Assembly (NCBI GenBank): GCA_033763455.1
Contig: JANRKO010000092.1
Coordinates: forward strand, 92,477 to 156,476
DNA from: Polyangiaceae bacterium
GTDB taxonomy: Bacteria > Myxococcota_A > Polyangia > Polyangiales > Polyangiaceae
DNA length: 64,000 nucleotides
Direction of reading: 5' to 3'
Under the pieces are notes generated by a model, which saw only the letters and a list, made by a program, of their open reading frames with translations, searched no databases and was not told where the DNA came from. The position numbers and the translations under genes are program-made. Shown here in pieces: positions 1-20,656 of the stretch (its first letter is position 1; every line of letters starts with the position of its first letter).

Positions 1-2690
1 TCTTGGGCCACAACACCTTGAAAACCCCAACGAGCAGGCATGAGGAACATCGGCCACTTCAGCATCGGATTGGTGGTCATGGGTACCATCAGGCCGCCGA
101 GCACGACTTGCGGAATGAGTGCGATCGGGGTGAGCGCCATGGCCGCTTCACTGCTTTCCACAATCGCGCTCAAGAGCAGACCCACTGCCACTGAATTGAT
201 CGATACCGCTACGAGAGTTGCGAGCTCTAGGCCAAAGGCGACAATTCCACCGTTGAAGCTGAGCGCGAAAAACACAATCGCAAGCAATGTGGCGCACTGC
301 ACCACGCAGATCGCCCCGAGCAACACGAACTTCGAGAAGACGTAGTTGAAAAGCTTCAGGTTCACCATGCGCTCGCGCCGATAGATCGCGCGTTCGCTCA
401 CGATTTCGCGCGCGGCATTGCTCGTTCCAAACCACACGGCGGCCACCACGAGGAAGAAGATGGCTCCCGCGTGGTCAGGCGTGGCCTGCATGCTGTTCAA
501 CATGCCCTCGGCTTTATTGAGCCCACCCGAGCGTTGGCCGAGCTCCTGCAGAGCGCCTAAGCACCAAAACGGAATCGCGTCTTTTTGGCCACCAAATACC
601 AAGGCCAAGAGAACGCCGATGATGGGCGCTTGCAGCAGCATGATCGCGGTGCCCATTCCATCGCGGAATTTCACCTTGAAGTAGCGGCTGAGCAGAAGGC
701 CAAATTGACCGCGCGTGGCGGGACGTTTACGTGAAACAGCGGGCTGTGTGGAGCCGGCGCCCACGGCTCTTCTTCCCGAATACATTTCCTCAAAGATGGG
801 ATTCTGCGGGCTAAAAAACTCGCGATTCCATTCTTCTGCAGCTTGCCGGCGAGCCAGGACGCGGGGCGCGTTGGGATCTTGAGCGCGCATAGCGTCAAAG
901 ATGGGCCGCTCGCGGCGATTTAACATGTCGAACATGTCACGCGGATTATCAACCGTATTTTTCTGACCCAATTTTTCGAGGAACGAACCAAAAAAGCGGT
1001 AACCGCCCGTGCTCGGTCCGTAATAGATGGGCAAGCCGCCTTGGCCCAAGATCAACGCTAGGTTAAACTTCTCATACTCTTCGCGGGCAGGCTGGTGGAT
1101 GGTGGTGATGATCGTTTTGCCAGTATTTTTAGCCAGATCCGACAAGAGCGTGACGAGTGCTGTGGTGTCGTCCGCGGCCAAACCACTTGTGGGCTCATCC
1201 AGGAACATGATGACGGGGTCCGTCACCAGCTCCATAGCAATGTTGACGCGTTTTCTTTGCCCGCCACTCAATACTTTCTTCTCTGGGCGTCCGATCTGCA
1301 GGTGTGCCACGGCTTCGAGCCCGAGTTGCTGCAGCGTAGTCTCCACGCGGCGATCGATTTCTTCGTCCGAGTAATCTGGAGGAAGGCGGAATTTAGCGCT
1401 GTAGCGCACCGCTTCCCAAACGGTTAACTCGGGGTGAACGATGTCGTCTTGAGGCACATAGCCAATGGAGCCCCGGAGGGCATCGTAGATGGTGTAGAGA
1501 TCTTCGCCGTTGATACGAACTTGGCCGTAGGTTGGTGGCAAGTAGCCGTTGAGCGTTAGCAGGAGCGTCGTTTTCCCGGCACCGCTTGGCCCCATGAGAG
1601 CAATGAGATCGCCCGGAAGTGCTTTGAAATTAACGTGATCCAGCAGAGTTTTGAGGGCACTCGGGTTGTCGCGGTCGGGTACCTGGAGCACCAAATCCCA
1701 AGCTTCGATCTCGTAAAGAGCGCGGCCCGCCCATTGGGCGGAGTCTTCCACCACCACCGAGACGTCTTGCCCCGCCACTTGCAACAGCAAGGGCATCGGA
1801 CCGATGAAGACTTTTTCTCCGTGGCTCACGGCTACGCGTTGGCCGGGCGGGATGCGCTGGCCGCGCACATACGTGCCGTTGGCACTTCCCAGATCTTCCA
1901 GGAAGAGCTTGCCGCCAACGCTGTGGAGCAACGCGTGTTTGCTCGATACCTGCGGGCTCGCAAGCACGATCTTGTTATCCGGCGTGCGACCGATGGTCTG
2001 GGTGCTCGCGGGCGCGGAGCCACCCATCATGATCTGACCGACTACGGTCTTGTGTCGGGGCCGTGTAGCTGGGTCCAGCGGGGCGGCGGCGGGCGCAGGT
2101 GCGTGGGCCGGTGGATGGGCCGGCGAATGAGTGGGGCCCAGCGTTTGTGCTAGCTGCCGCACCAACTCCACCGGAAGGGGCACAGGGCCAAGGGCTAAGA
2201 GCGCATGTGGATCCAAAGCGTGAACCTGCTCGGGCGCCAGGCGCTGCCCGGCTAGCCAGGTTCCGCTCTTCGAACTGTGATCCGTAACACTGAGTGGCGA
2301 AACGGTGAAGGTTGCGTGGAGGCCCGAAACGTTGGAGTTGGCAACCACGATATTGGCGCGTGCCGGATCTCGCCCGAAGCTAAGCGTTCCGGGCACTACC
2401 GGAGCTTGCCCCGGGGTGAGCAGCATGAGGCTGAGCGCTGGGTGGGCATTCGGAAGTGGCGTGTTGCCCAATACAAACTGCGAGCGAAAATCAAACGGAA
2501 CCTGTGAACCAGGGGCCACCGGTGCGCCGTTCACTCCCGAGGGCGCTACTCCGAGGTCTTGAAACATGAGCCCCGCATCTGTGAATACAATGCGAGCATG
2601 TTCTGGTGCAACATCGGGTGTGCCCAGGCGAATGTCGCAGTGAGCCGCACTACCGAGTATTATCGAACGTTTGCCGAAGCCAGGGATCAT
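1..2690 (-). CDS. FHA-domain ABC transporter (3 FHA + ATPase + ABC-2 permease, Rv1747-like), 3' end runs off the window
   Basis: Manual translation from ATG at 2690 (MIPGFGKRSIILG..). FHA motifs FGRDP..VSGLHA..SGT and IGRTP..VSSKHA..ANGT, Walker A GPSGAGKTT, signature LSGGQRKRVNIA, Walker B FLDEPTSG, then hydrophobic helices. Missing from the ORF track because there is no stop in the window. Confidence 0.9.
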   Translation of the reverse strand, partial: MIPGFGKRSIILGSAAHCDIRLGTPDVAPEHARIVFTDAGLMFQDLGVAPSGVNGAPVAPGSQVPFDFRSQFVLGNTPLPNAHPALSLMLLTPGQAPVVPGTLSFGRDPARANIVVANSNVSGLHATFTVSPLSVTDHSSKSGTWLAGQRLAPEQVHALDPHALLALGPVPLPVELVRQLAQTLGPTHSPAHPPAHAPAPAAAPLDPATRPRHKTVVGQIMMGGSAPASTQTIGRTPDNKIVLASPQVSSKHALLHSVGGKLFLEDLGSANGTYVRGQRIPPGQRVAVSHGEKVFIGPMPLLLQVAGQDVSVVVEDSAQWAGRALYEIEAWDLVLQVPDRDNPSALKTLLDHVNFKALPGDLIALMGPSGAGKTTLLLTLNGYLPPTYGQVRINGEDLYTIYDALRGSIGYVPQDDIVHPELTVWEAVRYSAKFRLPPDYSDEEIDRRVETTLQQLGLEAVAHLQIGRPEKKVLSGGQRKRVNIAMELVTDPVIMFLDEPTSGLAADDTTALVTLLSDLAKNTGKTIITTIHQPAREEYEKFNLALILGQGGLPIYYGPSTGGYRFFGSFLEKLGQKNTVDNPRDMFDMLNRRERPIFDAMRAQDPNAPRVLARRQAAEEWNREFFSPQNPIFEEMYSGRRAVGAGSTQPAVSRKRPATRGQFGLLLSRYFKVKFRDGMGTAIMLLQAPIIGVLLALVFGGQKDAIPFWCLGALQELGQRSGGLNKAEGMLNSMQATPDHAGAIFFLVVAAVWFGTSNAAREIVSERAIYRRERMVNLKLFNYVFSKFVLLGAICVVQCATLLAIVFFALSFNGGIVAFGLELATLVAVSINSVAVGLLLSAIVESSEAAMALTPIALIPQVVLGGLMVPMTTNPMLKWPMFLMPARWGFQGVVAQ

Positions 2691-2741
2691 AGATGGGATG
2701 CCTTGGGAGAGGGGAACACGGAGGTTAACTTGCAGGCGCTT

Positions 2742-4910
2742 TTAGTGCAGGTGCACAGCGAATTCGGCGCGACCGATTCGCAACAGTGATTCATCCACCA
2801 CGGGCAGCCACGCTCCGAGCGGTGCCTTGGTGCCGTTCACGTGTGTGCCGAGCTCAGCTTGCTCAGTGCGTACGAAAAGCCGCCCATCCTCCAGCTTAAG
2901 TGAGGCGTGGACGGGTGCGGCTTGGGTGGCATCAAGCACGATGCTGCAGTGCTGAAGATCGCTCCCAGCTCTGATTTCTGCGCCCGGCACGATGGTGAAC
3001 ACGCCCGGGGCTCCCTCTAGAATCGCACGCCTTCCCTGCGCGAGATCTTCGGCGGTGAGTGCCCGGGGCGGCTCTTGGCGTGCCTCCGCCCTATAGCCAG
3101 GCCCAGGCCCAGGCGGCGGCTGTTGCCCGCCGTAGCCCGGAGGAGGGCCGTAACCGCCTCCGGGAGGAGGGCCATAACCGCCGGGCCCTGTTGGACCGGA
3201 AGGACGCCGCTTCTTACCACTTTGCGCGATCACAATAATCAGTAAAAGCACTACGACAACGCCAAAGGCTCCTGCAAGTACGTAGAGGAGCGGAAACGGC
3301 GGCTCCGTCCCCGGCAGTTCCACAATCGTATCGGCAGTGACACCACTGGCTCGGTGAGCTTTGTTGTCGTAAACCACCAAACGCACAATGGCTTGGGATC
3401 CCGAGCCTTGCAGCAGCTTGTCTTTATCGGGTGCTTGAAATTCGACCACCGTGTCATTGGCGCTTACCGTGGTCCCCTTCATTCCCATAGCGATGAGCTG
3501 CTGTTGCGCATTTTTGGCAGCTGCGATGTCTTTGCCGGTCAGCTCCTTGGGTACGGCTTGCCCTGCCGGGAGGAAATAGACCTCTGCTCGGGATGCGTCG
3601 CCACCCCAACAAAAATCACCGTAAACTTTGAAGTTCCCGCCCGCGTAAACGCCGTTTTGGCGCTTGGCTGCATCCTTGGTGAGCTGGATGTTCACGTCGA
3701 GCGGCCAAGCCGTTGGGTCGACCCCGATTGGAACATCTTTAAATGTGTTGTCTCCACCGATCTGGGGCTTCACGTCGCTGAACACCAAGTTGAAAGTTTG
3801 GGTCACCGTGGGCGCCAAACAAGAAACTTTCCACTTGACGATGTGCATCTTGGCAAAGCGTGAGCGCACAGCGTTCACCACAGCGGAAGCGCGCGCGCCT
3901 TGGCCCTCCTGCACCACGGTGAAGAATCCGCCGATCTGGGGGTTGGCCAGGTTCTGCATGAACTCGAGCGAGTTCTGTCGAAATTCGTCGATGCTGCGGT
4001 AGGGAAAGAGGACGCTGATAACCGGCACCGGCACCTTGGGGGCAGCAGTATTGTTTTCGGGGAAGCGCCCTTGGGTCATGTATTGTTGAAGCTGCATCGC
4101 TCCGGGGCCGCTTGTTGCTGCATCCGCACCGCCGTAGCCATTCGAGAGCACCACCATCGCTTGGTGGAGCGGCACCGTGACAGTCTCGCCCACGTTTCCG
4201 AGCGCCCCGAAACCATCAGTGGCGGCCTGTTTGATGATGCTAAGCAAGCTGCGGGTGCGGCCTTGGCTCGGATAGGTACCGGTTACGCTATCGACGAACC
4301 CGGTTACTTTGTCTTTGGCGGCGGCGCTGTTCCACTGCGAGTCCTGCACGACTTGGCGGTCGTTGAAGAACATCACGTTAACAATGTCGTTGGGCCCCAT
4401 GCTGGCAACGAAGCGGCGGGCAACCTGCCGCGCATCGTCGAGGCTCTTGCCCATGCGCTTGTCTGCGTCGATGAGGATGAGCCAAGCGGTTCCTACTCCG
4501 GGCTCGGCCTGGCTATCGCCCCACTTGGTGTGGCTCACATGCGTTGCGGGGCGTTCGGACCCCTCTACGAGCACGGTAAACAGGGCCTGTTTTTCTGGAA
4601 ACGGAAATGGTGTGTAGAGCGCGTACGGCTTTTCTAGTGCATCGCTCATGCACGAAAACTGAGCGCTACCGGTCAACGTCGCGCACGGCGCGATCACTGA
4701 ACTTACGCGGGTGCTCTGGACGATCTCCACCAAAGTGGTGAGCACTGGATTGCCTCCCCCTTGCGAAGCCCTGGGATCGACCCGAAGAATGTGTGCCTCG
4801 GGGGCAGCGTGGGCTCCAAATGGGAGGAGCCAGATGGCGCACAGGATAATGAGTGCCTGCCACGGCAGGGAGCGACGTGGAGCAAGAGCGGGGGAGCCTT
4901 TGGTAAACAT
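2742..4910 (-). CDS. Membrane-anchored vWA-like protein with GYGPPP linker and degenerate C-terminal FHA
   Basis: Signal peptide (..FGAHA|APE), vWA-like LILIDAD..VNVMFFND..MVVLSNG, TM helix, Gly/Pro/Tyr repeats, FHA-like tail. Start moved to ATG 4910 because ATG 5000 lies inside the rplS terminator. Confidence 0.75.
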   Translation of the reverse strand: MFTKGSPALAPRRSLPWQALIILCAIWLLPFGAHAAPEAHILRVDPRASQGGGNPVLTTLVEIVQSTRVSSVIAPCATLTGSAQFSCMSDALEKPYALYTPFPFPEKQALFTVLVEGSERPATHVSHTKWGDSQAEPGVGTAWLILIDADKRMGKSLDDARQVARRFVASMGPNDIVNVMFFNDRQVVQDSQWNSAAAKDKVTGFVDSVTGTYPSQGRTRSLLSIIKQAATDGFGALGNVGETVTVPLHQAMVVLSNGYGGADAATSGPGAMQLQQYMTQGRFPENNTAAPKVPVPVISVLFPYRSIDEFRQNSLEFMQNLANPQIGGFFTVVQEGQGARASAVVNAVRSRFAKMHIVKWKVSCLAPTVTQTFNLVFSDVKPQIGGDNTFKDVPIGVDPTAWPLDVNIQLTKDAAKRQNGVYAGGNFKVYGDFCWGGDASRAEVYFLPAGQAVPKELTGKDIAAAKNAQQQLIAMGMKGTTVSANDTVVEFQAPDKDKLLQGSGSQAIVRLVVYDNKAHRASGVTADTIVELPGTEPPFPLLYVLAGAFGVVVVLLLIIVIAQSGKKRRPSGPTGPGGYGPPPGGGYGPPPGYGGQQPPPGPGPGYRAEARQEPPRALTAEDLAQGRRAILEGAPGVFTIVPGAEIRAGSDLQHCSIVLDATQAAPVHASLKLEDGRLFVRTEQAELGTHVNGTKAPLGAWLPVVDESLLRIGRAEFAVHLH

Positions 4911-4980
4911 ACGGGCCAAGACTCTAGAGGATTTTGCGCGCACCCGTGAGTCAGGGAGGGCGCCCGGGAGACCTAGACGC

Positions 4981-5011
4981 AAAAAAGCCCGCAAAGACAT
5001 GCGGGCTTTTT
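4981..5011 (-). terminator. Intrinsic terminator downstream of rplS (A/T tracts on both sides)
   Basis: AAAAAAGCCCGCA-aagaca-TGCGGGCTTTTT. Confidence 0.85.
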
Positions 5012-5052
5012 CTGGTTTCCGCCGTTTGGGCGGCTGACCGAAGGCTACTTCT

Positions 5053-5412
5053 TCAACGATCTTTTTCGTCTCTTACGCGAGCAGCCTTACCTACGAGGTC
5101 ACGCAAATAGAATAGGCGGCCGCGACGAACGACGCCGCGAGAGAGCACCTCAATCTTATCGATGCGGGGTGAGTGGGAGGCGAAAGCACGCTCCACGCCA
5201 ACGCCAAAGCTCACTTTGCGGACCGTGAAGGTCGAACGGCTCCCGGCACGATGGCGCTTGAGCACCACGCCCTTGAAGACCTGAACGCGCAACTTGTCGC
5301 CTTCGACGATTTTGTAGTGAACCGCTACGGTGTCCCCGACCTTAAAATCAGGCAAATCCGTGCGGATGAATTGGGCCTCGATGGGCGCGATGAGTGAGGC
5401 TGTGAGGGGCAT
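5053..5412 (-). CDS. rplS: 50S ribosomal protein L19
   Basis: [51 protein letters not shown]; start ATG 5412. Confidence 0.97.
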
Positions 5413-5452
5413 GACTTTCAAAAAACTCCCTGGCCGAGTTAGAGGGCCCGGG

Positions 5453-5481
5453 TATCTAGGCGGTTGTTTCAGCGTCGTCAA
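5453..5481 (-). promoter_or_regulatory. Putative sigma70 promoter for rplS
   Basis: TTGACG-N17-TAGATA on the minus strand. Confidence 0.5.
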
Positions 5482-5524
5482 CCGAAACAGCCTTGTTTTT
5501 TGTTTGGCCGCAGCTCAAGTCGGC

Positions 5525-5553
5525 TTGACGTCGGAGGCACGGAGGGCTATCCC
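5525..5553 (+). promoter_or_regulatory. Putative sigma70 promoter for rplC
   Basis: TTGACG-N17-TATCCC (weak -10). Confidence 0.4.
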
Positions 5554-5589
5554 CCCGGCCCGTTTTCAGAATTGCAGGAATTTAAAGCC

Positions 5590-6246
5590 ATGAATCAGTT
5601 TCCGGGTGTCTTTGGTCGCAAAGTTGGCATGACACAGATTTTCACCGAGGACGGCACCGTCGTTCCCTGCACCGTGGTCGAGAGCAAGCCCGTCGTGGTG
5701 GGCAAGCGCACGAAGGAGAAAAACGGCTACGACGCCCTCCTGCTCGGTCTGGGCCAGCGCAAGCCGAAGCACGTTAACAAGCCTCTTGCCGGGTTCTATA
5801 AGGGCATGAGCCACGCGCCTGCGGCTATCCTCCGTGAGCTCCGTTGCGCGGCAGAGTTCGCGTCCAAGTACGAGGTCGGACAGGAAGTGAAGCTCGACGA
5901 AGTTTTCCAAGAAGGCCAGTCCGTGGACGTCCAGGGTGTTACGCGCGGTCGCGGCTTCACCGGCGTCATGCGCCGCCACAACTTCAAAGGCGCTAAGCGC
6001 AGCCACGGTGCTCACGAGTATCAGCGCCACGGCGGTGCCATCGGTACCAACATGACGCCAGGTCGCGTCATGGCCGGCAAGCGCATGCCGGGACAGTACG
6101 GCAATGAGCAGGTCACCGTGCACAATCAGCCCGTGGTCAAAGTCATGGCCGATCAAGGCCTCTTGTTGATCCGCGGCGCGATCCCGGGTGCCAAGAATGG
6201 CCTCGTTGTGGTGCGCGGCGCTGTTAAAGTTCGCAACATTAAGTAA
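5590..6246 (+). CDS. rplC: 50S ribosomal protein L3
   Basis: GRKVGMTQIF..GRGFTGVMRRHNF..SHGAHEYQRHGGAIG..PGRVMAGKRMPG; ATG 5590 with AGGA upstream. Confidence 0.97.
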   Translation: MNQFPGVFGRKVGMTQIFTEDGTVVPCTVVESKPVVVGKRTKEKNGYDALLLGLGQRKPKHVNKPLAGFYKGMSHAPAAILRELRCAAEFASKYEVGQEVKLDEVFQEGQSVDVQGVTRGRGFTGVMRRHNFKGAKRSHGAHEYQRHGGAIGTNMTPGRVMAGKRMPGQYGNEQVTVHNQPVVKVMADQGLLLIRGAIPGAKNGLVVVRGAVKVRNIK

Positions 6247-6337
6247 CAGGGATCCACGCCCGACAGATGCCGTTCGCACTTTGGCGATCGGCGCATTCCG
6301 CCAGGGCGAAACGGCTACCAGTGGCGCGATGCGCACA

Positions 6338-7753
6338 CTATGCCATGAGGAGTTCCCGTCCCCGGACTATGTGAACGCCGCCCAGGACGCGCGGCGCGCC
6401 TCTAGAAACCTCCGGGACTAACAGCGCTCGAACTACTGACTCCGCCTTGAAGCGCAAGGCGGGCGCGGGCAGCAGCTTACGTGCTGTCTCGTGAGCAAGC
6501 CGCTCAAGCTCGCGAACATCAAAGGGGCGCGCTGACCACTTCACCTCAGCGGTAAGGAGCCGTTTACCATCGTCCGACGCGCTAACGAGATCCCACTCGG
6601 GGGCGTTCCCTCGCCACCAGCGCGCGGGGGTGCGCCATGGTCCGAGCCGTCCGAGAGCTGAGCGGTGGTCGATATCAGTGACAAATGTTCGACACAATTC
6701 CTCCCAAGCCAAGGCAGCGAGAATGGGCCAGTGCGTGCGCAAGAGGGCAATTCGCTCGTTAGCCTTACTCGAAGCCAAGCGTCCGCGATTGGGAGCTACC
6801 ACTCGAAACCAGAGGCGCGCGAACGGATCATTGAGCTTGTACAGGCTGCGTTTGCTGAGGTGTTCCGGCTCGCCGTAAGGAACTTCGCGGGAAATCAGAC
6901 CTAGCTCCTGTAGGCGTTGGAGAGGCCGCGACAGTGAAGTAGCTTTCCATCCGATGCGACCTGCAATCTCCGAGGCCCGGTGCACCCCTTGCCCGACAGT
7001 ATCAAGGATCGGACGCAGCTCAACTGCTGAAGGGACTTCCTCCAGAAGCAGCCGATCGGGCTCCGTGTGCAGTGGCCCAAGCGGGTTCAAAACAAGGGCA
7101 TCAATCTGAGATTCCACGCCGTTGCCAGCTTCGACGGCGAGCTCCCAGTAGCGCGGCACGCCACCCCAGGCCGCATACAACTGGACCAGCTCGATGATCG
7201 AACGCTTGCCGAAGGCGCTGGGCAGGTACCGCGGCGACAAAGGCTTGACCTCGAATAGCGCTTCGGCCCGACCATAAAGTGGCGCAGATGCGGCCAGCAC
7301 CAAACCTTGCATCATGCGCTGGCTGGACCCAGCGAGTGCAAGCGTTAGCCGAGCGGCTTTGGCCTCGTGGTCGATGAAGCGCTGCAGCACACTCGCGATC
7401 TCCGGCGCTGCGAACGCCAGATAAGGGAGCTCGTCTATCACCAACGGGCCATGCCACTTTCGAGCTCGTGCATCGCGCGCAAGGCGCGAAAATAAACTCG
7501 CCCAATCCGGGTACTCAACGTCCGCGAACCCCGGCAACACCTGAGCAACAGTGCTGGCGAAGTAGCGTCGTTGCACCTCGGGCGCGGATTGATCGGCGAC
7601 GGTATAGAGCCCCCCGTTTCGCTCTGCCCATTCAAGAAGCAGGCGAGTCTTCCCGATTCGCCGCCGCCCATAGACAACAGCTAACCGCCCCCCGGTACCG
7701 GAAAGCAGGCGCACCAGTACTTCCATCTCCTCATTTCGGTTGATGAAGCGCAT
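6338..7753 (-). CDS. AAA-family (archaeal-type) ATPase with wHTH and C-terminal DUF234/PD-(D/E)xK-like domain
   Basis: MRFINRNEE, Walker A YGRRRIGKT, Walker B VIDELPYL, GGVPRY, YKLNDPFARLWF, C-terminal EWDLV..AEVKW. Confidence 0.85.
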   Translation of the reverse strand: MRFINRNEEMEVLVRLLSGTGGRLAVVYGRRRIGKTRLLLEWAERNGGLYTVADQSAPEVQRRYFASTVAQVLPGFADVEYPDWASLFSRLARDARARKWHGPLVIDELPYLAFAAPEIASVLQRFIDHEAKAARLTLALAGSSQRMMQGLVLAASAPLYGRAEALFEVKPLSPRYLPSAFGKRSIIELVQLYAAWGGVPRYWELAVEAGNGVESQIDALVLNPLGPLHTEPDRLLLEEVPSAVELRPILDTVGQGVHRASEIAGRIGWKATSLSRPLQRLQELGLISREVPYGEPEHLSKRSLYKLNDPFARLWFRVVAPNRGRLASSKANERIALLRTHWPILAALAWEELCRTFVTDIDHRSALGRLGPWRTPARWWRGNAPEWDLVSASDDGKRLLTAEVKWSARPFDVRELERLAHETARKLLPAPALRFKAESVVRALLVPEVSRGAPRVLGGVHIVRGRELLMA

Positions 7754-7793
7754 TATGCTGGGAAACATAATGCAATACCGCATAATATGTCAA
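7751..7793 (-). promoter_or_regulatory. Promoter/operator of the AAA ATPase gene
   Basis: Perfect -35 TTGACA (7788-7793, minus) with N18-TATGTT; inverted repeat CATTATG-N8-CATAATG (7751-7772) plus third half-site CATAATA (7781-7787). Confidence 0.55.
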
Positions 7794-7937
7794 ATGGCGT
7801 GCGCGTCCGCGGCGGAAAACGCCCGTACCATGAAAATCCTCAGCCGAGATGAGCGCTTTGACAAGAAGAGCGGTGGGGCTCGCGAACGAACATGGCGCCC
7901 ATCGCAACAAGCTGAGCTTGAGCGTTGATCCCTTTGA

Positions 7938-8084
7938 TCAGGGGCAGCCGATGTCTACGTCTAAAGTGAGCACGGGTGCCCCTTGTAGGGCTGCCGCGAC
8001 ACCACCCACGACCATAAACTCCACACGGTGCTCGCACAGCACTCGGAGCATTTTTCCCCAATCGACTACCGCCATTGGTGCCAT
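7938..8084 (-). pseudogene. Truncated nucleotidyltransferase (Pol-beta superfamily, DUF6036-like)
   Basis: Manual translation MAPMAVVDWGKMLRVLCEHRVEFMVVGGVAAALQGAPVLTLDVDIGCP*; GG..DxD motif followed almost at once by a stop. Confidence 0.75.
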
Positions 8085-8102
8085 GCGCAGAAGCGGAATC
8101 CG

Positions 8103-8213
8103 CTACTCCACGGCGGGAATACGACGGACTGAAGCCAGCGAGTTCAGGAAATTTTCCACGGCCTTGAGGCGTTCGGTAGGCGTTAAACCAAGATATCCCG
8201 ATTCGTCGGTCAC
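8103..8213 (-). pseudogene. Short ORF or remnant resembling the small partner gene found upstream of such nucleotidyltransferases
   Basis: VTDESGYLGLTPTERLKAVENFLNSLASVRRIPAVE*; LTPxERL motif; GTG overlaps the GGDEF stop (GTGA). Confidence 0.5.
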
Positions 8214-8938
8214 AAAGGACGCTCTATGCGTGCGCCACAGTTGGGGCAGAATAGCTCGCCCTGATGAGGGCTCCCGAGCGGAACTTCCAAAGTGAACGAC
8301 GAATTGCACTCGCGACAGTCATCGCGAATGCTGCGGCGCTGCGCCTTCTCGACGTCAGGAGAGTAGCGGATAACGCAGTTTCGGCCTTGGATTTTGGCCG
8401 TTCCCACGGTTGCCTCGAGCATGCGCATTGCAACCCGATGTGTGAGAATCTCATCGCCCGTATCGTCAGAAGTCATCCACCCAATGCTGACAGTGCAGCT
8501 CATCGTGCCATGCTCGGTTGAAACCGCAATGCCTTCGATTTCTGCGCGCAAGCGCTGAAGCGCGTCGTGAATTGAGCCTTCGACGACATTGGGGCCTTTA
8601 GGCCCAAGCAGATAGAACTCATCTCCGTGTGCACGAATGGGCATGGTACTAGCGATGTAGTCCTCAAACGCTGCCAGCCGCTTCCCAATCTTCTGAAGTA
8701 GGCCGTCCGCTAGTTCGTACCCAAATTTGTCGTTGACGCGCTTGAAGTAATCGACCTCGATGAATGCAAACCAGAAAGGCTCACCGCGTTCCAGTGCGTT
8801 CCTCAGGCTTTCTGCGAGCGCCTGATCATTGCCGAGCCCGGTGAGCCGATCACGGAGCTGCTCCTCGCGGACAAGCGCTTCAATCTGCCGTTGCAGCTCC
8901 CCAAGCGCGGCTTCCAACTTCTGAGTCTGCTGTGTCAA
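8210..8938 (-). CDS. Variant GGDEF protein with N-terminal coiled coil and C-terminal Zn ribbon
   Basis: DRLTGLGN, EVDYFKRVNDKFGY..AD, RAHGDEF, TVSIG, AK..GRN; CRECNS..FCPNCG. Confidence 0.9.
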   Translation of the reverse strand: MTQQTQKLEAALGELQRQIEALVREEQLRDRLTGLGNDQALAESLRNALERGEPFWFAFIEVDYFKRVNDKFGYELADGLLQKIGKRLAAFEDYIASTMPIRAHGDEFYLLGPKGPNVVEGSIHDALQRLRAEIEGIAVSTEHGTMSCTVSIGWMTSDDTGDEILTHRVAMRMLEATVGTAKIQGRNCVIRYSPDVEKAQRRSIRDDCRECNSSFTLEVPLGSPHQGELFCPNCGARIERPL

Positions 8939-9243
8939 CTCAAGGCACCGGAAATCTCGAGCGCGAGTCGGCGGGGGTTTTCGTAAGGCTGCCCCTCCAC
9001 TGGGACATCAACACTCACCATCCGCCCGTCGGGAAGCTCGCTCGTGACGACCCAAACGGGTGCTCCGTGCCGCCTTCCCAATTCTGCAGAGACAAGGCGA
9101 AACCCACGTTCTCGGAGCTCATCTCTCAGCGCGTTGTCAAACGACCTGCGCGCCGGCTCTCTCGATGAGCCAGCAAGGGCCAGCAAGCCGAGGGCGGCAA
9201 GACCACCTGCCACCCACATTGCCGAGCTATCCTGCTTCGCCAC
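8935..9243 (-). CDS. Small hypothetical protein with one N-terminal TM helix
   Basis: 102 aa, hydrophobic WVAGGLAALGLLALAG, AGGA upstream of GTG, TTGA overlap with the GGDEF start. Confidence 0.75.
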   Translation of the reverse strand: MAKQDSSAMWVAGGLAALGLLALAGSSREPARRSFDNALRDELRERGFRLVSAELGRRHGAPVWVVTSELPDGRMVSVDVPVEGQPYENPRRLALEISGALS

Positions 9244-9342
9244 ACATCTATCCTAGGCTGTGGTGCACGAACCGGCAAGCACGAGCGGGGGAGACTCTGA
9301 CTTCGAGAAAAGGCGGATATCATTCGGTTTATTTATAGTTCA

Positions 9343-9371
9343 TTGAATATGTGCGCGATGATGTATACGGT
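9343..9371 (+). promoter_or_regulatory. Putative sigma70 promoter (possibly leaderless transcript) for the HTH-STAND gene
   Basis: TTGAAT-N17-TACGGT ending 7 nt before GTG 9379, in an AT-rich patch. Confidence 0.45.
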
Positions 9372-9378
9372 GGGTATA

Positions 9379-12300
9379 GTGAAAAATTCATTCGATCTGA
9401 AGTCATCTCGCACCCGCCTTTCATTAACCCAGGCGGCGCTCGCCGACCGTCTAGGGCGTGCAACAAACACGATCGCTCGCTGGGAGCGGGGGGAACTTGC
9501 GGTGCCGGAAGACGTTCGGCGCGTCGTCGAAGCGTTAATTTCAGGACCGGCTGCAAGGCTTCCCGTCCCCGACGTTGTCACGCTCGACACGTTTCATTCA
9601 GATATTGTTGCTGCTCTGCATGAGCACGTTGACCCCGCTGTGTTCGAGGAGTGCGCAGCTAACCTACTGAGAGAGCAATGGCCTAAACTTGTCCCCGTTC
9701 CGGGCGGAAGCGATGACGGGTTCGACGGAGCTGTCGCCGGGGATGAAGGCACGAGGCCATGGCCCTTAATTGTCACGACGGATCGAAAGCCGGAGCGCAA
9801 TCTGAGCCGTAGCCTCAAGCAGGCGATTACCAAGGGGCACAACCCTAAGGTCGCAATTTTTGCAACATCGCGAGCGCTGACGCCTGGCCAGCGGCGCAAA
9901 CTTAACGACGCTGCTACGGCGTGTGGGGTAGTGCTTCAGCAGATCTATGACCGTTCCTGGTTCGCGGCCGCTCTGTACCGACATCCAGAGTGGTGCAATA
10001 AGCTGCTCGGCCTTACAGGAACCCCAGATCCTCTGTCTAGATTGCCGCTCTTGCTTAGGCTGGGGGGCACACATGAGATGCTCGGGCGATCATCCGAGCT
10101 CGCTAAAGCGCGCGAAACCGAGTCCGACGTGATCCTCTTAGGCGGTCCGGGGTCAGGGAAGACCATGCTGCTCCTACGGCTTGCTGATGACGGCTACTTT
10201 TTGTCGGACGGTGACCGAAATGCGGTGACGAATTCGATTCGTCGCCACTCGCCGAGGGTCGTGATTGTGGACGACGCGCACGATAACTTCACGCAGTTCG
10301 GTTTGTTGGTGAAGCTACGCAGGCAGCTAGGTGCTAAGTTTCGGATTGTCGTAAGCGCGTGGCCGCCCTACCTCGAAGATCTCCGTGAACATCTACCTAA
10401 TGCCGAGGTTGTGAGTCTAGGCGAGCTCGACGCTGACGTAGTCGCAGATATCGTTCGTTCCATAGTGCCGAATCTTCCAAACCAAGCCATCAAAGTAATC
10501 GTGCGGCAAGCTGATGGTCGCCCTGGCCTCGCAGCTACTCTGGCACATATGTGCATTGATGGACGCTACCGAGATGTAATGACTGGCGATGCTGTTTATG
10601 AGCGCTTGGGCAGCTACGTGGCGAAGGACCGAGAGTTGTTGGGTTGCTTTGCGGTGGCAGGTGACGCTGGCCTCCAGCTGGAGGATGCCGCAACGTTCCT
10701 TGGCCGACCGAAGGATGACGTGCAACGGGCGTTGACGCGCCTAGCTGCTGGTGGCGTCATTCGCGTCAGCGGCAGCAGACACTTTTCAGTCTGGCCGGAG
10801 CAATTGCGGTACGTCCTCGTTCGGGAAGTCTTTTTTCACGAGCGCAATGGGCTCGACTATGAACAGTTGGTTGCAAAGGTTTTCAATCGAAGTGCATGGC
10901 TTCGTGTGCTCATTGGGGCAACCCGTTCAGGAGCGCAGGTGCCGCGTCTCCAGGATAGGTTGGAGGAAGTGAACCAAGTGCAGCTCTGGTGCGAATACGC
11001 TTCCCTAGATCCGCAAGCCGCGAGCTACGTTCTCGACAAGCATCCAGAAATGCTCGTGGAAGCGGCGCCAGAGCTCTTGTGGCACGTGCCGGATCGCGCA
11101 CTTTCGAAGCTGCTCGACGCGGCCGCTCGGGGAGGGGCGCCTAGTGGTCGTGACGCTCCTGCGCTGACGGCGTTGCGAACGTGGCTGAGAGATTCCTCAA
11201 TGGACGAGAGAGTTGTCATTGCGAGGAGTCAGGAGGCCGCAAAGCAGGTTCTGAAGTGGATCAAGCGAAATGAGAACCATGCCGGAGCAATCGTCTTCTG
11301 TATCGCGATGAGTCCGATTTTGCAGGTGACAGAGAGTGATCCGGGCCGAGGTATGACGTTGACCTATCGCCGTGGTGCTGTGGGTGATTGGGGTATTGGG
11401 CAACTCACAGCGCTTTGGGATGCAGCACTACCGGACCTAATGCGCGCTCGTTCGCTGCCATGGGGTCACCTCTTGGACCTAGTAAATGAGTGGGCTCGCC
11501 CTGACGGCGGGATCCCCATAACTGCCGAGGCGAGGCGCATGATGCGCGACCTTGCCTGCAAAATGGTGCGTGACGTCGTCCCGCTCGCGAAGGCTCATCC
11601 AGGTGCGCAGCGAAGGCTGGCGGAAGTCGCTCGGACATTGGAGATCTCGGGGGAGGTGGACTTCCCCGACGTGGGGGCCGACGTGGGCGCGCTTTTTCCG
11701 CGCTTGGACAGGCACTCGGTCGACGACTTAGAGGCCGTCATGAAGAGTCATGTAAAGAGGGTTCGGGAATGGGCGCGGGTCCGCATCGATGTAAAAGACG
11801 TTGGCGAGCTGGTCCGATCCGTGCTTTCGCTCCAACAGCAACTGAACGAAGCGAAAGCTCGATCCGACAACTACGTGTGGGCGGCCTTCGACGAGTTTGC
11901 CCGGGGTACGTCAACGCCTACGGAGTGGGTCGATGCTTTAGTTGCAGAGCGTGCGGACCCCGCTCTGGTATGGCCCTTCGTACGACGGATCATAGACGAG
12001 GGCAGCGAGCTTGCGACGCTATTGGGGCTTCTGAAGGAGGACCGCTATACGGGATTACTTGCCGAAGGCGCCGTCATGTCAAAGAGTGCCCACGCCGAGG
12101 TCGTCGAATGGGTTGATTGCAAGGCCGCTGACTACGTTGAACAAATCTCCTGTCAAATCCGGGTGGGCAATGTTGGCGATGATCGAGTGCTCGCATTTCT
12201 CCATCACCGCGACCCACGCGTTCGCGCTGCAATTGCGGTGGCATATTATGTCCGGGAGAAGAATCCTTCCGACGAGCTCGGGAGTGCTTGGCGCAATGCG

Positions 12301-12936
12301 ATAATCGACACGGCTCGGGTCCCCGAACTACCGAGTCAGTACGAGTACTGGTTAAAACAGATTCTGACGCAGAACGTTGAGCTCGGTTCAGAATGGCTAA
12401 AGGCTCTCCTTGAGATCGAGAACGATGATCTTTCCTTTCACGATATCGGTCTCGAAGTCGCTGACAGGCTCGCGTTCGCGGCAAAGGCGGATATTCTTCA
12501 CTCGGCAAAGTTTGGCGTGCATCAGGCTGAGTTTCTCACGCATCTGGTGGGCGGAGATCCGAAGCTCTATGAAATGCTCCTGGAGCGTCGAGATCTCGCG
12601 GAGTATCACCTTGAGCCGCTCGCTTGCCGCTCGCGACTCGTGGACTCATTCTCCGGACCGATGAACCCGCGGAGGGGGTGGGCGGAGTTGTCAGCAATGG
12701 CGTTGGAACGAGGCTTCTCCGAGGATGAAGTGTTTAGAGCGATCCTGCCACGGTCGTGGGGCTTCACGGGCAGCGAAGTCCCTCTATGGCAGGGCTGGCG
12801 CGATGATTTTGAAAAATTTGAATCCCATTCCGAGCCAGCGGTGCGCCGAGTCGCCTCCCGTGGGAAGAGCGAGATGGATCGACGTCTTGCCGCAGCTCGG
12901 GAGCGTGAACGGATGGACGCCGTCCGCGGGGTCTGA
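9379..12936 (+). CDS. XRE-HTH + Mrr/REase-like fold + STAND-type P-loop ATPase with long helical C-terminus (Avs/NLR-like defence candidate)
   Basis: LTQAALADRLGRATNTIARWERGE (HTH); FEECAANLL..GGSDDGFDG (REase-like); GGPGSGKT; VVIVDDAH; GRPGLA (GxP). Confidence 0.8.
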   Translation: MKNSFDLKSSRTRLSLTQAALADRLGRATNTIARWERGELAVPEDVRRVVEALISGPAARLPVPDVVTLDTFHSDIVAALHEHVDPAVFEECAANLLREQWPKLVPVPGGSDDGFDGAVAGDEGTRPWPLIVTTDRKPERNLSRSLKQAITKGHNPKVAIFATSRALTPGQRRKLNDAATACGVVLQQIYDRSWFAAALYRHPEWCNKLLGLTGTPDPLSRLPLLLRLGGTHEMLGRSSELAKARETESDVILLGGPGSGKTMLLLRLADDGYFLSDGDRNAVTNSIRRHSPRVVIVDDAHDNFTQFGLLVKLRRQLGAKFRIVVSAWPPYLEDLREHLPNAEVVSLGELDADVVADIVRSIVPNLPNQAIKVIVRQADGRPGLAATLAHMCIDGRYRDVMTGDAVYERLGSYVAKDRELLGCFAVAGDAGLQLEDAATFLGRPKDDVQRALTRLAAGGVIRVSGSRHFSVWPEQLRYVLVREVFFHERNGLDYEQLVAKVFNRSAWLRVLIGATRSGAQVPRLQDRLEEVNQVQLWCEYASLDPQAASYVLDKHPEMLVEAAPELLWHVPDRALSKLLDAAARGGAPSGRDAPALTALRTWLRDSSMDERVVIARSQEAAKQVLKWIKRNENHAGAIVFCIAMSPILQVTESDPGRGMTLTYRRGAVGDWGIGQLTALWDAALPDLMRARSLPWGHLLDLVNEWARPDGGIPITAEARRMMRDLACKMVRDVVPLAKAHPGAQRRLAEVARTLEISGEVDFPDVGADVGALFPRLDRHSVDDLEAVMKSHVKRVREWARVRIDVKDVGELVRSVLSLQQQLNEAKARSDNYVWAAFDEFARGTSTPTEWVDALVAERADPALVWPFVRRIIDEGSELATLLGLLKEDRYTGLLAEGAVMSKSAHAEVVEWVDCKAADYVEQISCQIRVGNVGDDRVLAFLHHRDPRVRAAIAVAYYVREKNPSDELGSAWRNAIIDTARVPELPSQYEYWLKQILTQNVELGSEWLKALLEIENDDLSFHDIGLEVADRLAFAAKADILHSAKFGVHQAEFLTHLVGGDPKLYEMLLERRDLAEYHLEPLACRSRLVDSFSGPMNPRRGWAELSAMALERGFSEDEVFRAILPRSWGFTGSEVPLWQGWRDDFEKFESHSEPAVRRVASRGKSEMDRRLAAARERERMDAVRGV

Positions 12937-13144
12937 GGGAACGCGGCCGCTCAAGAGAAGGCGCCGCCAACTGCCACTTAATCCCCCAGGGATCGCGTCC
13001 CAAAGGAGGCCCGTTTTGGAAGGCGCAAAAAACCCTGAAGCCGTTGATTCGCCTCGGACCCTCCACAGGCACAGAGCTAGAAAAGCACCCCGTGTCCGTA
13101 ATCCTCCTAGCTTTTCCGTGCCGCCTCCGGCAAGGAACCCCATC

Positions 13145-14755
13145 GTGGCAGAGTTGCTGAACACAGGGTGGCCTGAACGTCGCGTGCTCAGCGACGAAAA
13201 CGGCTTGCTAGTGGTGGATAAGCCCGCCGGAATTCCCGTGCATGGCGGCGACGAAGGCTTGAAAGACGACGTGGTTTCGCGCTTGGCGGGGTGGTTCCGC
13301 GCGCACGGTGAATCAGAATATTTGGGCGTGCATCAGCGGCTTGATAAAGAGACCTCGGGGGTCCTCGTTTTTACGCGCAGCGAGCACAGAAATCGCGATG
13401 TGGCCGAGGCGTTCGAGTCTCATACGGTGCAGAAGAAGTACGTCGCGCTCGCGTCGTTGGCCGGCGTGAAAGCTGGGCAACTCAAGCGTTTGGAGGGCAC
13501 CTGGGAGGATAGATTGAGCAAACCGGAGAAGGGGCGAGTGAGCGTGGCGCGAACGGGAGGGCTTGAAGCCGTTACCCGGTGCCGAGTGCTCGAACAGTGT
13601 GGCCAGCGCGTCCTCATGGAGCTCTCTCCCGTCACCGGCCGCACCCATCAGTTGCGTGTGCAAGCGAGCGCACGAGGCATTCCCATTGTGGGGGATAGCA
13701 TTTACGGAGGGGAGCCCGCCTTGCGTTTGATGCTGCACGCTCACGAGCTCAAGCTGCCGAAGCAAAAGGCTTGGGTGGCGCCTATTCCGGGGGTGTTCCG
13801 CGATTGGTTGTACCAGCGGCCTTTTGATTTTGAAACCGAGGAGCTGAAGGGGCGCCTTCTGGATTCGTTTTTTCAGCGCGAGCCGCTTTCCGCCGAGAGC
13901 AACACGTATCGGCTAGTGAATGATCTGGGCGATCAATTGCCAGGCGTATGTATCGATAAATTTGGGGATTCCGCCGTGGTTTCCCTGTTTGATGAGCGCG
14001 CCTCGGCAGCCGGTGAAAAGCTGAGTGGGCTCTTGTTGGACATGGGATTTTCGCGCGTGCGTGTGGAGCATCGGGAGCGCGCCGTCACCAAAGTTCTCTC
14101 TGCACCAGCAGTGTTCACGGTGCAGGAGCATGGCGCCAACTTTGAGGTGCGGTTTGACGACGACTCATCCGTTGGGCTGTTTCTCGATCAACGCGAAAAT
14201 CGCCAACGCCTGCGGGCATTGTCGAAGGGGCTCCGGGTGCTCAACTTGTTTTGCTACACGGGGTCCTTCAGCGTTGCGGCGGCGCTCGGTGGAGCGCGCC
14301 AAGTGGTGAGCGTCGATCTGTCGGGTAGGTACCTTGAATGGGCGAAGCGCAACTTCGAGCTCAATGGTCTTACGGTTGATAGGCACGAGTTCATTCAAGC
14401 GGATGCTACGGTGTGGCTTGAACAGGCAGCTCGGCAGAAGAGGGTCTTCGATTTCATCGTGCTGGATCCTCCGAGCTTCTCAAGTGTGGGCAAACGGAAG
14501 ACCTTCAGTGTTGCTCGGGATTACGCCGAGACGGCCTCCCAATGCCTCCGCCTATTGGCCCCAGGAGGCCAGCTTTTGGCCGTCACTAATCACCGAAAAA
14601 CACCGCTACCTAAGCTCAGATCCGAGCTTCGAAAGGCCGCGGCGAGCGCGGGGCGCACCGTGCTTCAGCTTAAGGATATCCGCTCGGGTCGCGATTGCCC
14701 CGACTTGCTGAACGAGCCTCATCCGAGCAAAAGTGTGCTCGTGCGCGTAAAGTGA
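13145..14755 (+). CDS. Fusion of RluA-family pseudouridine synthase and RlmI/RlmK-like SAM methyltransferase
   Basis: VVDKPAG, HQRLDKETSG, TGRTHQLRV, LMLHA; then GLFLDQRENR, VLNLFCYTGSFS, IVLDPPSF; start GTG 13145. Confidence 0.9.
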   Translation: MAELLNTGWPERRVLSDENGLLVVDKPAGIPVHGGDEGLKDDVVSRLAGWFRAHGESEYLGVHQRLDKETSGVLVFTRSEHRNRDVAEAFESHTVQKKYVALASLAGVKAGQLKRLEGTWEDRLSKPEKGRVSVARTGGLEAVTRCRVLEQCGQRVLMELSPVTGRTHQLRVQASARGIPIVGDSIYGGEPALRLMLHAHELKLPKQKAWVAPIPGVFRDWLYQRPFDFETEELKGRLLDSFFQREPLSAESNTYRLVNDLGDQLPGVCIDKFGDSAVVSLFDERASAAGEKLSGLLLDMGFSRVRVEHRERAVTKVLSAPAVFTVQEHGANFEVRFDDDSSVGLFLDQRENRQRLRALSKGLRVLNLFCYTGSFSVAAALGGARQVVSVDLSGRYLEWAKRNFELNGLTVDRHEFIQADATVWLEQAARQKRVFDFIVLDPPSFSSVGKRKTFSVARDYAETASQCLRLLAPGGQLLAVTNHRKTPLPKLRSELRKAAASAGRTVLQLKDIRSGRDCPDLLNEPHPSKSVLVRVK

Positions 14756-14782
14756 GCGTGAAGCCAGCTTGAAGCAAAAGCG

Positions 14783-15373
14783 ATGACCAAGAATCCCTAC
14801 AACCGCGTCGACCCCCGCACGCTCGCCGCGCGTGCTCAAGGTTACCCGGCGCGCAGCATCTTCAAGCTCGAAGAAATTGATCGTCGCGTGAAGCTCTTCA
14901 AGGGTGGCCAACGTGTGTTGGATCTCGGGGCAGCCCCCGGTTCGTGGACGCTGTATGCAGCGAAGAGGGTGGGGTCGAGCGGCCGCGTAGTTGCGATTGA
15001 TCTCAAGCCCATCGAGGAAGCCATGCCGCCGTGGGTTACCAGCAGCGTGGGCGATATTTTTCAGGTGCCGTCCGAGTCTGTGGCTGGCGCGGGGCCTTAC
15101 GATGTTGTGATGAGCGATATGGCGCCCAACACGAGTGGCTCCAAAGTTCACGATCAAACGGTGAGCTTTGAACTCGTGATGCGGGCTCTTGAATTCGCTG
15201 CTCACGTGGGTAAGTCCGGCTCGCACTTTGTAGCGAAGCTCTTCATGAGCAATCAGTTCACCGAGGCTAAGTCCGCGATACAGAAGCAGTATTCGGACAT
15301 GACCACGATTCGCCCTCAGGGAACCAGGAAGCCTAGCTCGGAAGTATTCTTGGTGGGGTTAAGGAAGCGGTAG
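14783..15373 (+). CDS. rlmE: 23S rRNA Um2552 methyltransferase
   Basis: YPARSIFKLEEI, VLDLGAAPGSW, VMSDMAP, FVAKLF, SSEVF. Confidence 0.93.
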   Translation: MTKNPYNRVDPRTLAARAQGYPARSIFKLEEIDRRVKLFKGGQRVLDLGAAPGSWTLYAAKRVGSSGRVVAIDLKPIEEAMPPWVTSSVGDIFQVPSESVAGAGPYDVVMSDMAPNTSGSKVHDQTVSFELVMRALEFAAHVGKSGSHFVAKLFMSNQFTEAKSAIQKQYSDMTTIRPQGTRKPSSEVFLVGLRKR

Positions 15374-20557: not shown

Positions 20558-20656
20558 AGCTCAAGTAGGGAGTGTTTGAGGCGCTAGGGGGTGTGTTCGT
20601 TGACAACGATGCGTGTCTGCTTAGGCTCTTGGGTTGCGCACCACGGAGCCCCGACA

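Follow-up and report, generated by a model that had tools for sequence, protein, structure and literature searches.

The DNA analysed here, referred to below as the window, is a stretch of 64,000 nucleotides from a Polyangiaceae bacterium (contig JANRKO010000092.1, positions 92,477 to 156,476), and the subject of the analysis is a cassette of two minus-strand genes within it, one of which encodes a membrane protein of 102 amino acids (the partner) and the other a GGDEF protein of 242 amino acids (the cyclase). In a first-pass annotation made from the sequence alone, the two genes had been described as a coupled pair in a defence-like island and as a candidate for a new nucleotide-signalling system. 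Both open reading frames (ORFs) were found at the positions it had given (Table 1), and the overlap it had read was confirmed, positions 8935-8938 being tcaa on the plus strand, i.e., TTGA on the minus strand, where the TTG start of the cyclase ORF overlaps the TGA stop of the partner ORF. The TTG start is credible because homologues start with Met-Thr at the aligned position, and since about 80 full-length relatives of the cyclase and 296 clusters of partner proteins were retrieved, neither ORF is a chance frame. The scan for promoters and terminators returned nothing above shuffle expectation, and the 99-bp intergenic region next to the partner gene is without a consensus promoter.

A conserved two-gene unit

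To define the extent of the unit, we scanned GTDB at one genome for each species and obtained 22 family loci (L015-L036), which together with the window make a set of 23. The all-versus-all clustering of ORFs placed the cyclase in 23 of the 23 loci and the partner gene directly upstream of it and on the same strand in 22 of them, which bears out the coupling that had been proposed, and at the remaining locus (L024) the partner was matched by BLASTP at 5e-08. No other real gene was common to more than three of the 23 loci in this clustering, and the next-largest ORF clusters were opposite-strand shadow ORFs of the pair itself. A search of metagenome contigs with the cyclase alignment gave 50 family loci, 45 of which had at least 300 bp of upstream sequence, and the partner gene was located upstream in 43 of these 45 (all except L203 and L218), with a gap of -13 to +48 nt to the cyclase start. 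The genome and metagenome counts are not fully independent, because some loci duplicate loci from metagenome-assembled genomes (MAGs), such as L213/L024 and L224/L019. The first-pass annotation had also drawn the neighbouring STAND ATPase into the system, and this part of its proposal did not hold up: the ATPase gene is adjacent in the window and occurs at none of the 22 related loci. The STAND, ATPase_2/DUF234, FHA, and ABC genes of the window were all rejected as partners, given that BLASTP against the 22 loci found none of them except for generic ABC matches in L024, and the methyltransferase gene of the window had no counterpart at any of the 22 loci by BLASTP either. The pair is a conserved unit, with no other conserved neighbour.

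The architecture of the cyclase was found to be as previously described, with a short helix recovered in the AlphaFold2 model and a GGDEF domain and a C-terminal cysteine ribbon recovered both there and by Pfam. The PF00990 GGDEF match covers residues 29-164 with 67.7 bits against a cut-off of 23.8, the TIGR00254 match (60.2 against a cut-off of 37.4) spans residues 27-189, and besides GGDEF the Pfam search returned only weak Zn-ribbon matches at residues 208-239, with no sensory domain. The model, built on a 43-row alignment, has a mean predicted local distance difference test (pLDDT) score of 91.9 and shows the whole GGDEF fold, preceded by a helix at residues 3-27 and followed by a ribbon of beta strands at the C-terminus. 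The individual motifs were likewise recovered (E61-V-D63, N69, D78, H104-G-D-E-F108, C208xxC211, and C231xxC234), the A-site reading HGDEF and not the GG[DE]EF pattern. In the HMMER alignment to PleD, E61 is aligned to the first D of the DID motif (D327), a conservative D to E change, K66 to K332, N69 to N335, D78 to D344 (D or N within the family), R102 to R366, H104 to G368, D106 and E107 to E370 and E371, K182 to K442, and R186 to R446. Apart from G368, these PleD residues serve as metal, phosphate, or guanine ligands. The RxxD columns of the PleD I-site are I-A-S-T in the cyclase, so that the protein is without an I-site, as had been noted.

The word-indexed protein search with the cyclase returned 109 proteins at E <= 1e-3, among which 80 (P0004-P0083) form a close group with E values of 2e-99 to 2.5e-35, identities of 36-64%, and lengths of about 240-300 amino acids; their named sources are Polyangiaceae, Myxococcota, or 'Deltaproteobacteria' MAGs. 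The family alignment was composed of the query and 42 of these 80 close relatives. Invariant in all 43 sequences are W56, A58, E61, D63, F65, K66, N69, and H104-G-D-E-F108, together with T149, G153, W154, A181, R205, C231, P232, C234, and R240, while conservation reaches 90% or more at C208, C211, K182, R186, and R102. The positions that correspond to PleD D327 (as E), K332, N335, D344, R366, E370, E371, K442, and R446 vary little or not at all within the family. Because HGDEF and E-x-D occur in 43 of the 43 aligned sequences, they are fixed, family-wide traits and not the signs of a degenerate site, and the invariance of the catalytic residues across 36-64% identity argues for an active enzyme under selection. 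With regard to the histidine, an engineered HGDEF mutant of the Vibrio cholerae cyclase VCA0965, whose own motif is AGDEF, still raised cellular c-di-GMP (cyclic di-GMP; PMC3974145), so histidine at the first motif position is compatible with activity and HGDEF by itself, judged by this analogy, is no evidence for new chemistry. The likeness to VCA0965 is thus that the first motif position tolerates change; the difference is that HGDEF was engineered there, in an unrelated multi-domain protein, and is invariant here across a natural family. H104 and D106 are two residues apart on one strand and should therefore face the same way, toward E61, which would give a His/Glu-remodelled metal site.

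The partner was confirmed to carry a single hydrophobic, glycine-rich segment at about residues 10-27, followed by arginine and lysine residues, from which the positive-inside rule would predict an N-out/C-in topology and a cytoplasmic location for the folded domain. In the AlphaFold2 model, residues 30-102 have pLDDT values above 90 and the N-terminal 21 residues are of low confidence, and the elements of the model are a helix at 29-45, strands at 49-58, 61-69, and 75-81, and a helix at 90-101. A profile from 22 partner copies retrieved 296 representative clusters at E <= 1e-3 and 155 at E <= 1e-10, nearly all of them 85-135 amino acids long. In a wide alignment of the window protein and 117 of the 150 listed representatives (95-135 amino acids; 118 sequences in total), the most conserved positions were W64 (99%), F35 (94%), R57 (91%), R32 (87%), T67 (86%), G56 (82%), and, within the membrane helix, G19 (81%), the last of which is invariant in the 22 partner sequences. 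The partner had no match in Pfam or NCBIfam, no match in a sequence-profile search of the PDB at E <= 10, none by Foldseek against the PDB at E <= 1e-3, and no usable match in the ESM Atlas. In the wide VIA-align search, the best Z was 5.8, below the tool's meaningful level, and the top matches at Z <= 5.8 were ribosome hibernation factors, the N-terminal domain of TldE/PmbA, and T7 Gp1.2. With about 300 clusters, the partner represents a new family of small proteins whose fold, though predicted with confidence, is unclassified. Among the rare long forms are P0245 (699 amino acids) and P0178 (336 amino acids), in which the soluble domain of the partner makes up the C-terminus and the membrane helix is lacking; the former also contains a PLD-like domain (PLDc_2, 1.1e-11), the latter FG-GAP repeats. 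Such proteins could be genuine fusions or run-ons of gene calling, and if the long forms are real, the soluble domain is a portable module.

Mobility and neighbourhood of the cassette

The comparison with congeners showed that window positions 6230-13191 are missing from three of them (G001, G002, and G003), in each of which the counterparts of 1-6229 and 13192-15370 are adjacent, with a gap of 106 bp in G001. Because the flanks are contiguous in all three, the segment from about 6247 to 13191 is an island of about 7 kb that is specific to this genome; it is bounded by an L3-family gene and a pseudouridine-synthase/methyltransferase gene and holds the cassette and two unrelated cargo genes (Table 1).

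The cassette is rare as well. Of 401 genomes drawn evenly from the phylum, 5 encode the partner (4 of the 340 of high quality), and these belong to 5 genera; a full-length cyclase homologue occurred in only two congeners, G001 and G002, among 40 relatives. The G001 copy, with 45% identity, is a 1,202-bp insert of exactly the two genes, located 30 nt downstream of tRNA-Phe, and G003 has the same tRNA-Phe and the same flanks (87-90% identity) with the 1,202-bp segment cleanly absent. The G002 copy at the tRNA-Phe site is broken into two pieces, with HVDEF, stops, and a frameshift, for which an assembly error is a possible cause. Within a single genus, two divergent forms of the cassette are thus present at two sites, along with a site that is cleanly empty and a copy in decay. 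The cassette is an accessory element that has been gained, lost, and broken as a unit.

Table 1. Coordinates of the cassette, its protein features, and the surrounding island (window numbering)
Feature	Position	Strand	Basis or remark
Partner gene, 102 amino acids, single-pass membrane protein	8935..9243	-	GTG start at 9243; alternative ATG at 9219
Glycine-rich transmembrane segment of partner, about residues 10-27	9163..9216	-	Sequence
Predicted cytosolic alpha-beta3-alpha domain of partner, residues 29-102	8938..9159	-	AlphaFold2
Cyclase gene, 242 amino acids, stalk + GGDEF (HGDEF) + Zn ribbon	8210..8938	-	TTG start
N-terminal stalk helix of cyclase, residues 3-27	8858..8932	-	AlphaFold2, Foldseek
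GGDEF domain of cyclase, residues 27-189	8372..8860	-	TIGR00254, PF00990
E61-V-D63, replacing the D-x-D metal-ligand motif	8750..8758	-	Alignments
HGDEF A-site, residues 104-108	8615..8629	-	Reverse complement CAC GGA GAT GAG TTC
C-terminal four-cysteine zinc ribbon of cyclase, residues 205-240	8219..8326	-	R205, C208, C211, F215, C231-P-N-C234, R240
Divergent intergenic region, 99 bp, between cassette and HTH-STAND gene	9244..9342	.	
Island of about 7 kb, specific to this genome among congeners	6247..13191	.	Congener flanks contiguous
L3-family gene, 260 amino acids, left flank of island	5464..6246	+	PF00297, 1.4e-16
ATPase_2 + DUF234 protein, island cargo, not conserved as a partner	6338..7783	-	PADLOC candidate PDC-S27 (2.9e-35)
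HTH + STAND/NACHT-like NTPase, 1197 amino acids, island cargo, not conserved as a partner	9343..12936	+	

To characterize the surroundings of the family, we used Pfam and PADLOC to annotate the 180 ORFs of at least 100 amino acids that are located no more than 5 kb from the pair at the 22 loci. The results showed that the defence-like setting proposed for the window recurs around the cassette and is not seen around control GGDEF loci. The clearest cases were: (i) L018, with a type I HsdR gene (2.7e-145) immediately upstream, next to tRNA-Lys and tRNA-Glu, and SoFic (4.4e-35) and HEC-01A (4e-99) downstream; (ii) L033, where the pair is inside a type I restriction-modification (R-M) locus, between hsdS-hsdM-YhcG/PDC-S02 and hsdR; (iii) L026, with DUF5131/PDC-M41B adjacent and PDC-S06 (1.5e-153) and GmrSD (1.4e-168) nearby; (iv) L027, with DUF5131 adjacent and a type I specificity protein nearby; (v) L035, with AbiEi, RmuC, and OLD; and (vi) L023, with PDC-M24B, and the window locus itself, with PDC-S27. 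In addition, a large serine recombinase is located immediately upstream of the pair at L015, along with a PNP-domain protein. For 12 non-redundant metagenome loci, the neighbours of which were annotated with Pfam only, McrB and McrC adjoin the pair at L182, a type II R-M system is near it at L203, and an FRG protein and an HTH-ImmA/IrrE protein are near it at L206 and L211, respectively. At L216, a tyrosine-integrase ORF (3067-4572) and a tRNA-Leu (3153-3237) are located about 2 kb upstream of the cassette, with a series of ORFs after them that Pfam does not match, and the surroundings look like an integrated element. As for the layout of the L033 locus (1629-13832), five genes are embedded between hsdM and hsdR, namely the YhcG/PDC-S02 nuclease, the cassette pair, a 275-amino-acid ORF, a Sel1-repeat protein, and a 189-amino-acid ORF.

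The control consisted of the 150 ORFs around 14 non-family GGDEF genes (13 loci in full and L063 in part), which are the first 150 of 240 ORFs from 23 non-family GGDEF loci. At E <= 1e-25, the matches at the control loci were limited to three with PycC, at the level of a domain, and none was to an R-M or PDC model. Specific PADLOC matches at that threshold, by which we mean those left after generic kinase, methyltransferase, ABC, and helicase matches are excluded by a list of our own making, were found at 7 of 23 family loci in comparison to 0 of 14 control loci (Fisher one-sided p = 0.024), and any PADLOC match at 13 of 23 in comparison to 3 of 14 (Fisher one-sided p = 0.039). The cassette thus has both of the generic marks of a defence system, i.e., an accessory distribution and an enrichment of defence genes around it, the latter being modest.

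Interpretation and relation to known systems

Since the pair is rare, since its two genes are acquired, lost, and disrupted together, and since it is found repeatedly in R-M, defence, and mobile islands, a role in anti-phage signalling appears most likely to us. The reading that we place first is that of a mobile, conflict-associated module of a cyclase and a membrane partner, to which we would give a probability not quite reaching even. Building on the observed anatomy, pairing, mobility, and island context, we infer the following for the activity, product, topology, binding, immune role, and trigger of such a module. The two ORFs would be a self-contained, horizontally mobile unit, in which the cyclase combines the ribbon with a stalk helix for dimerisation and a GGDEF domain that has its full catalytic set, family-specific changes at the metal site (E-x-D and HGDEF), and no I-site. 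Its product would most likely be c-di-GMP or a close GTP-derived dinucleotide, made without product feedback. The partner, which is coupled to it in translation, would be a single-pass, N-out/C-in protein with the conserved glycine in its helix, and its cytosolic domain (R32, F35, R57, W64, and T67) would most likely contact the cyclase and/or read its product at the membrane, where the conserved Arg, Trp, and Phe residues could bind the dinucleotide. The membrane partner would then be the output, controlled by the bound cyclase or by its product, and the trigger would lie either in the zinc ribbon, where R205, F215, P232, and R240 are invariant, or in nucleotide loss.

Several observations weigh against this reading. 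The island in the window has no flanking direct repeats, no tRNA gene, and no shift in GC content. The enrichment of defence genes draws on control loci from other phyla and on some family loci that are related to each other (L026 and L027), and recognised defence genes are near only about a third of the loci. In a soil clade (L022, L028, L188-L198, and L181), the neighbours of the pair are stable and include genes for a methyltransferase, a hemerythrin, a kinase, and a transglutaminase, and at L019 and L036 the cassette is among metabolic genes. Neither cassette protein matches any model of PADLOC-DB v2 (2023 release) at E < 0.008, and in a scan of viral contigs with the family alignment no member of the cyclase family was among the best 80 loci. 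This genome has 13 GGDEF matches, with c-di-GMP as a housekeeping messenger, and because such a network is present an immune signal would need insulation from it. Finally, a protein with one transmembrane helix would be an unusual effector. A DUF790 and XPB-type helicase pair is located downstream of the congener cassette at L019 (10862-13455) and L036 (6645-8575), and the helicase, which matches PADLOC PbeA at 1e-52, was counted as ambiguous and not as defence. A phage origin of the cyclase was rejected, the best 80 viral-contig loci being generic GGDEF sequences with 23-39% identity.

The alternative that survives best, and one which we consider a serious though lesser possibility, is that the cassette is an ordinary diguanylate cyclase system in the manner of SiaC and SiaD, in which the partner binds the stalk or the ribbon and thereby tethers and activates the enzyme at the membrane, with c-di-GMP feeding the host network for matrix, motility, or development; the cassette would then be an accessory lifestyle trait and not an immune one. 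This alternative had not been taken up in the first-pass annotation. By sequence family and by structure, the closest solved relative of the cyclase is SiaD of Pseudomonas aeruginosa. SiaD is the best NCBIfam match of the cyclase (NF038266, 8.5e-22), even though its score of 77.7 bits is far from the equivalog cut-off of 290, and it is also the best Foldseek match (7e6g_A, SiaD with its activator SiaC, E 2.3e-15, TMq 0.66), followed by the coiled-coil and GGDEF protein DgcB; the coiled-coil and GGDEF structures matched were 7e6g and 6ttr. SiaC is a small partner that binds the SiaD stalks and promotes active dimers (PMC8457831). For the cassette, the complex prediction with the full cyclase and residues 28-102 of the partner gave a score of 0.56 (runs 0.58, 0.56, and 0.55) in comparison to 0.07 for the best of three controls, with a partner pLDDT of 85 and agreement of the runs in at least 96% of contacts. 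Of the 80 solved complexes and 110 mismatched pairs used for calibration, 58 and 2, respectively, reached the mark, but the range at or below 0.60 held only 7 of the 80 solved complexes along with both of the mismatched pairs that passed, so the prediction lends weak support to direct binding. Taken together with the translational coupling, it makes direct binding of partner and cyclase somewhat the likelier case. SiaD and the cyclase have in common a stalk helix followed by GGDEF, the lack of a sensory domain, and a small partner encoded in the same operon, which here is weakly predicted to bind the cyclase.

The differences from SiaD and SiaC are as follows: (i) the partner is unrelated, membrane-anchored, and of no known family, and having no sequence relative in the PDB it is no SiaC homologue by sequence; (ii) no kinase- or phosphatase-type gene is conserved beside the pair, as no other gene is conserved there at all; (iii) the cyclase has HGDEF with E-x-D and an extra C-terminal zinc ribbon; (iv) it has no I-site, while the SiaD paper contains a section on allosteric inhibition; and (v) the cassette is rare, mobile, and island-borne. 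The structural relationship to SiaD and the preservation of the guanine-binding N and D fit a SiaC/SiaD-like system as well as they fit the conflict-associated module, and the stable synteny of one clade with non-defence genes speaks for the former. The extreme patchiness and the insertion, deletion, and pseudogene dynamics within one genus speak against it, as do the repeated embedding in R-M and defence islands, which control GGDEF loci do not share, the missing Pfam relatives of the partner, and the conserved glycine in the membrane helix, which would be superfluous in a mere anchor. The data on mobility and islands favour the conflict-associated module. If the cassette is not immune, it would still provide a second, unrelated case in which a small partner controls a stalk-GGDEF cyclase, now at the membrane.

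A particular version of the conflict-associated module, the probability of which is included in that of the module as a whole, is a guard or decoy following the logic of Panoptes and Panoptoo, in which a constitutively made nucleotide holds the partner inactive and a phage sponge or nuclease, by removing it, would release membrane disruption. This version appears improbable to us on its own. It agrees with a cyclase that has neither sensory domain nor I-site, with the defence-island context, and with the layout of Panoptes (PMC12657218) and Panoptoo (10.64898/2026.08.10.743927), both of which are defence-island operons of two genes, one for a sensor-less cyclase of the palm or a related fold and one for a membrane protein (mCpol OptS with 2TM-beta OptE, and a minimal DAC enzyme with S2TM-beta, respectively). 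The differences are that the cyclase here is a true Pfam GGDEF with stalk and ribbon, whereas mCpol is minimal and nearly without the motif in the description given by PMC12657218, and that the partner here is one helix with an alpha-beta3-alpha domain and not, as in the same description, a receptor of two helices and a beta-rich domain. Furthermore, the stalk and zinc ribbon of the cyclase could be regulatory inputs, and the predicted direct binding is not a feature that the available part of the Panoptes description mentions. The cassette was rejected as a member of Panoptes, for it has neither the minimal palm cyclase nor the two-helix, beta-rich partner.

In CBASS and Pycsar, a cyclase is combined with a membrane effector that has a cytosolic ligand-binding domain, and the same logic of cyclase and membrane effector, as in CBASS and Pycsar systems with transmembrane effectors such as Cap15, can be seen in the cassette. 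The cyclase here, in contrast, is a GGDEF enzyme and not a CD-NTase or class III cyclase, and the effector would be far smaller and have a single helix. Membership in CBASS or Pycsar was rejected, with no PADLOC match at the threshold given above and a cyclase that is GGDEF. With PleD and WspR, the cyclase shares the fold and the catalytic residues as well as the guanine-binding N and D; it differs from them in having no receiver or other input domain and no RxxD I-site, in having H for the first G and E for the first metal-ligand D, and in the added zinc ribbon. The first-pass annotation had also not recognised the pair as a named system, and this was borne out: there is no model for it in PADLOC-DB v2, and no description of it was found in open-access papers and preprints, supplements aside.

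Small, overlapping two-gene cassettes in islands are typical of toxin-antitoxin pairs. The weakest alternative, a selfish addiction-type pair or a non-enzymatic GGDEF receptor or scaffold whose residence in islands is only hitch-hiking, takes up this layout and the decaying copy in G002, and we regard it as very unlikely given that all catalytic residues are invariant across the family and that neither protein has a toxin-like domain in Pfam, PADLOC, or NCBIfam.

Anti-phage signalling has been tied to palm-fold cyclases (Cas10 and mCpol), CD-NTases, class III cyclases, TIR proteins, and recently DAC enzymes, and in the parts of the literature available true GGDEF enzymes are named only as a candidate for it (PMC13640721; 10.64898/2026.08.10.743927), a 2026 preprint on DAC-based defence mentioning GGDEFs as a possible future case of similar exaptation (PMC13640721). 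There is a real chance that the cassette is the first immune module with a true GGDEF. Its most specific form, a first natural anti-phage system in which a feedback-free HGDEF cyclase with a His/Glu-remodelled metal site would be complexed with a one-helix membrane effector and control it through a local GTP-derived dinucleotide, being either switched on by infection through the ribbon or a guard that responds when phage removes the nucleotide, we consider unlikely. The cassette of about 1.1 kb makes a compact test for a recruitment to conflict of the second-messenger enzyme that is most abundant in bacteria, and it also bears on how an immune signal stays apart from housekeeping c-di-GMP.

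Other features of the island and the window

The two cargo genes of the island, which encode the ATPase_2 and DUF234 protein and the STAND protein with its helix-turn-helix (HTH), are candidate defence genes themselves and are absent from the congeners. For the STAND protein, Pfam gave an HTH_31 match at 3e-06 and a weak match to the NACHT P-loop. No Rfam match was found in the island. The L3-family gene at its left border stands alone beside FHA-domain and FHA-ABC transporter genes and not among ribosomal-protein genes, and the ORF at 5566-6336 on the minus strand was rejected as a gene, being probably spurious, with the L3-family gene as the real one. Outside the island, a 316-amino-acid protein (20591-21541, plus strand) consists of several zinc-ribbon modules (Zn_ribbon_TFIIB, DZR, and Zn_ribbon_3/4), which by Pfam are unrelated to the ribbon of the cyclase.

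An 87-bp stretch at 7851-7937, in the 426 bp that separate the ATPase_2/DUF234 gene from the cyclase gene, has counterparts elsewhere. One of them is inside a 560-amino-acid HEAT-repeat gene (G000:C12:985-1070; 90% identity), and others, with 77-79% identity, are on several contigs from the three congeners. To judge from these matches, the stretch seems to be the remnant of a HEAT-repeat gene that was left in the island.

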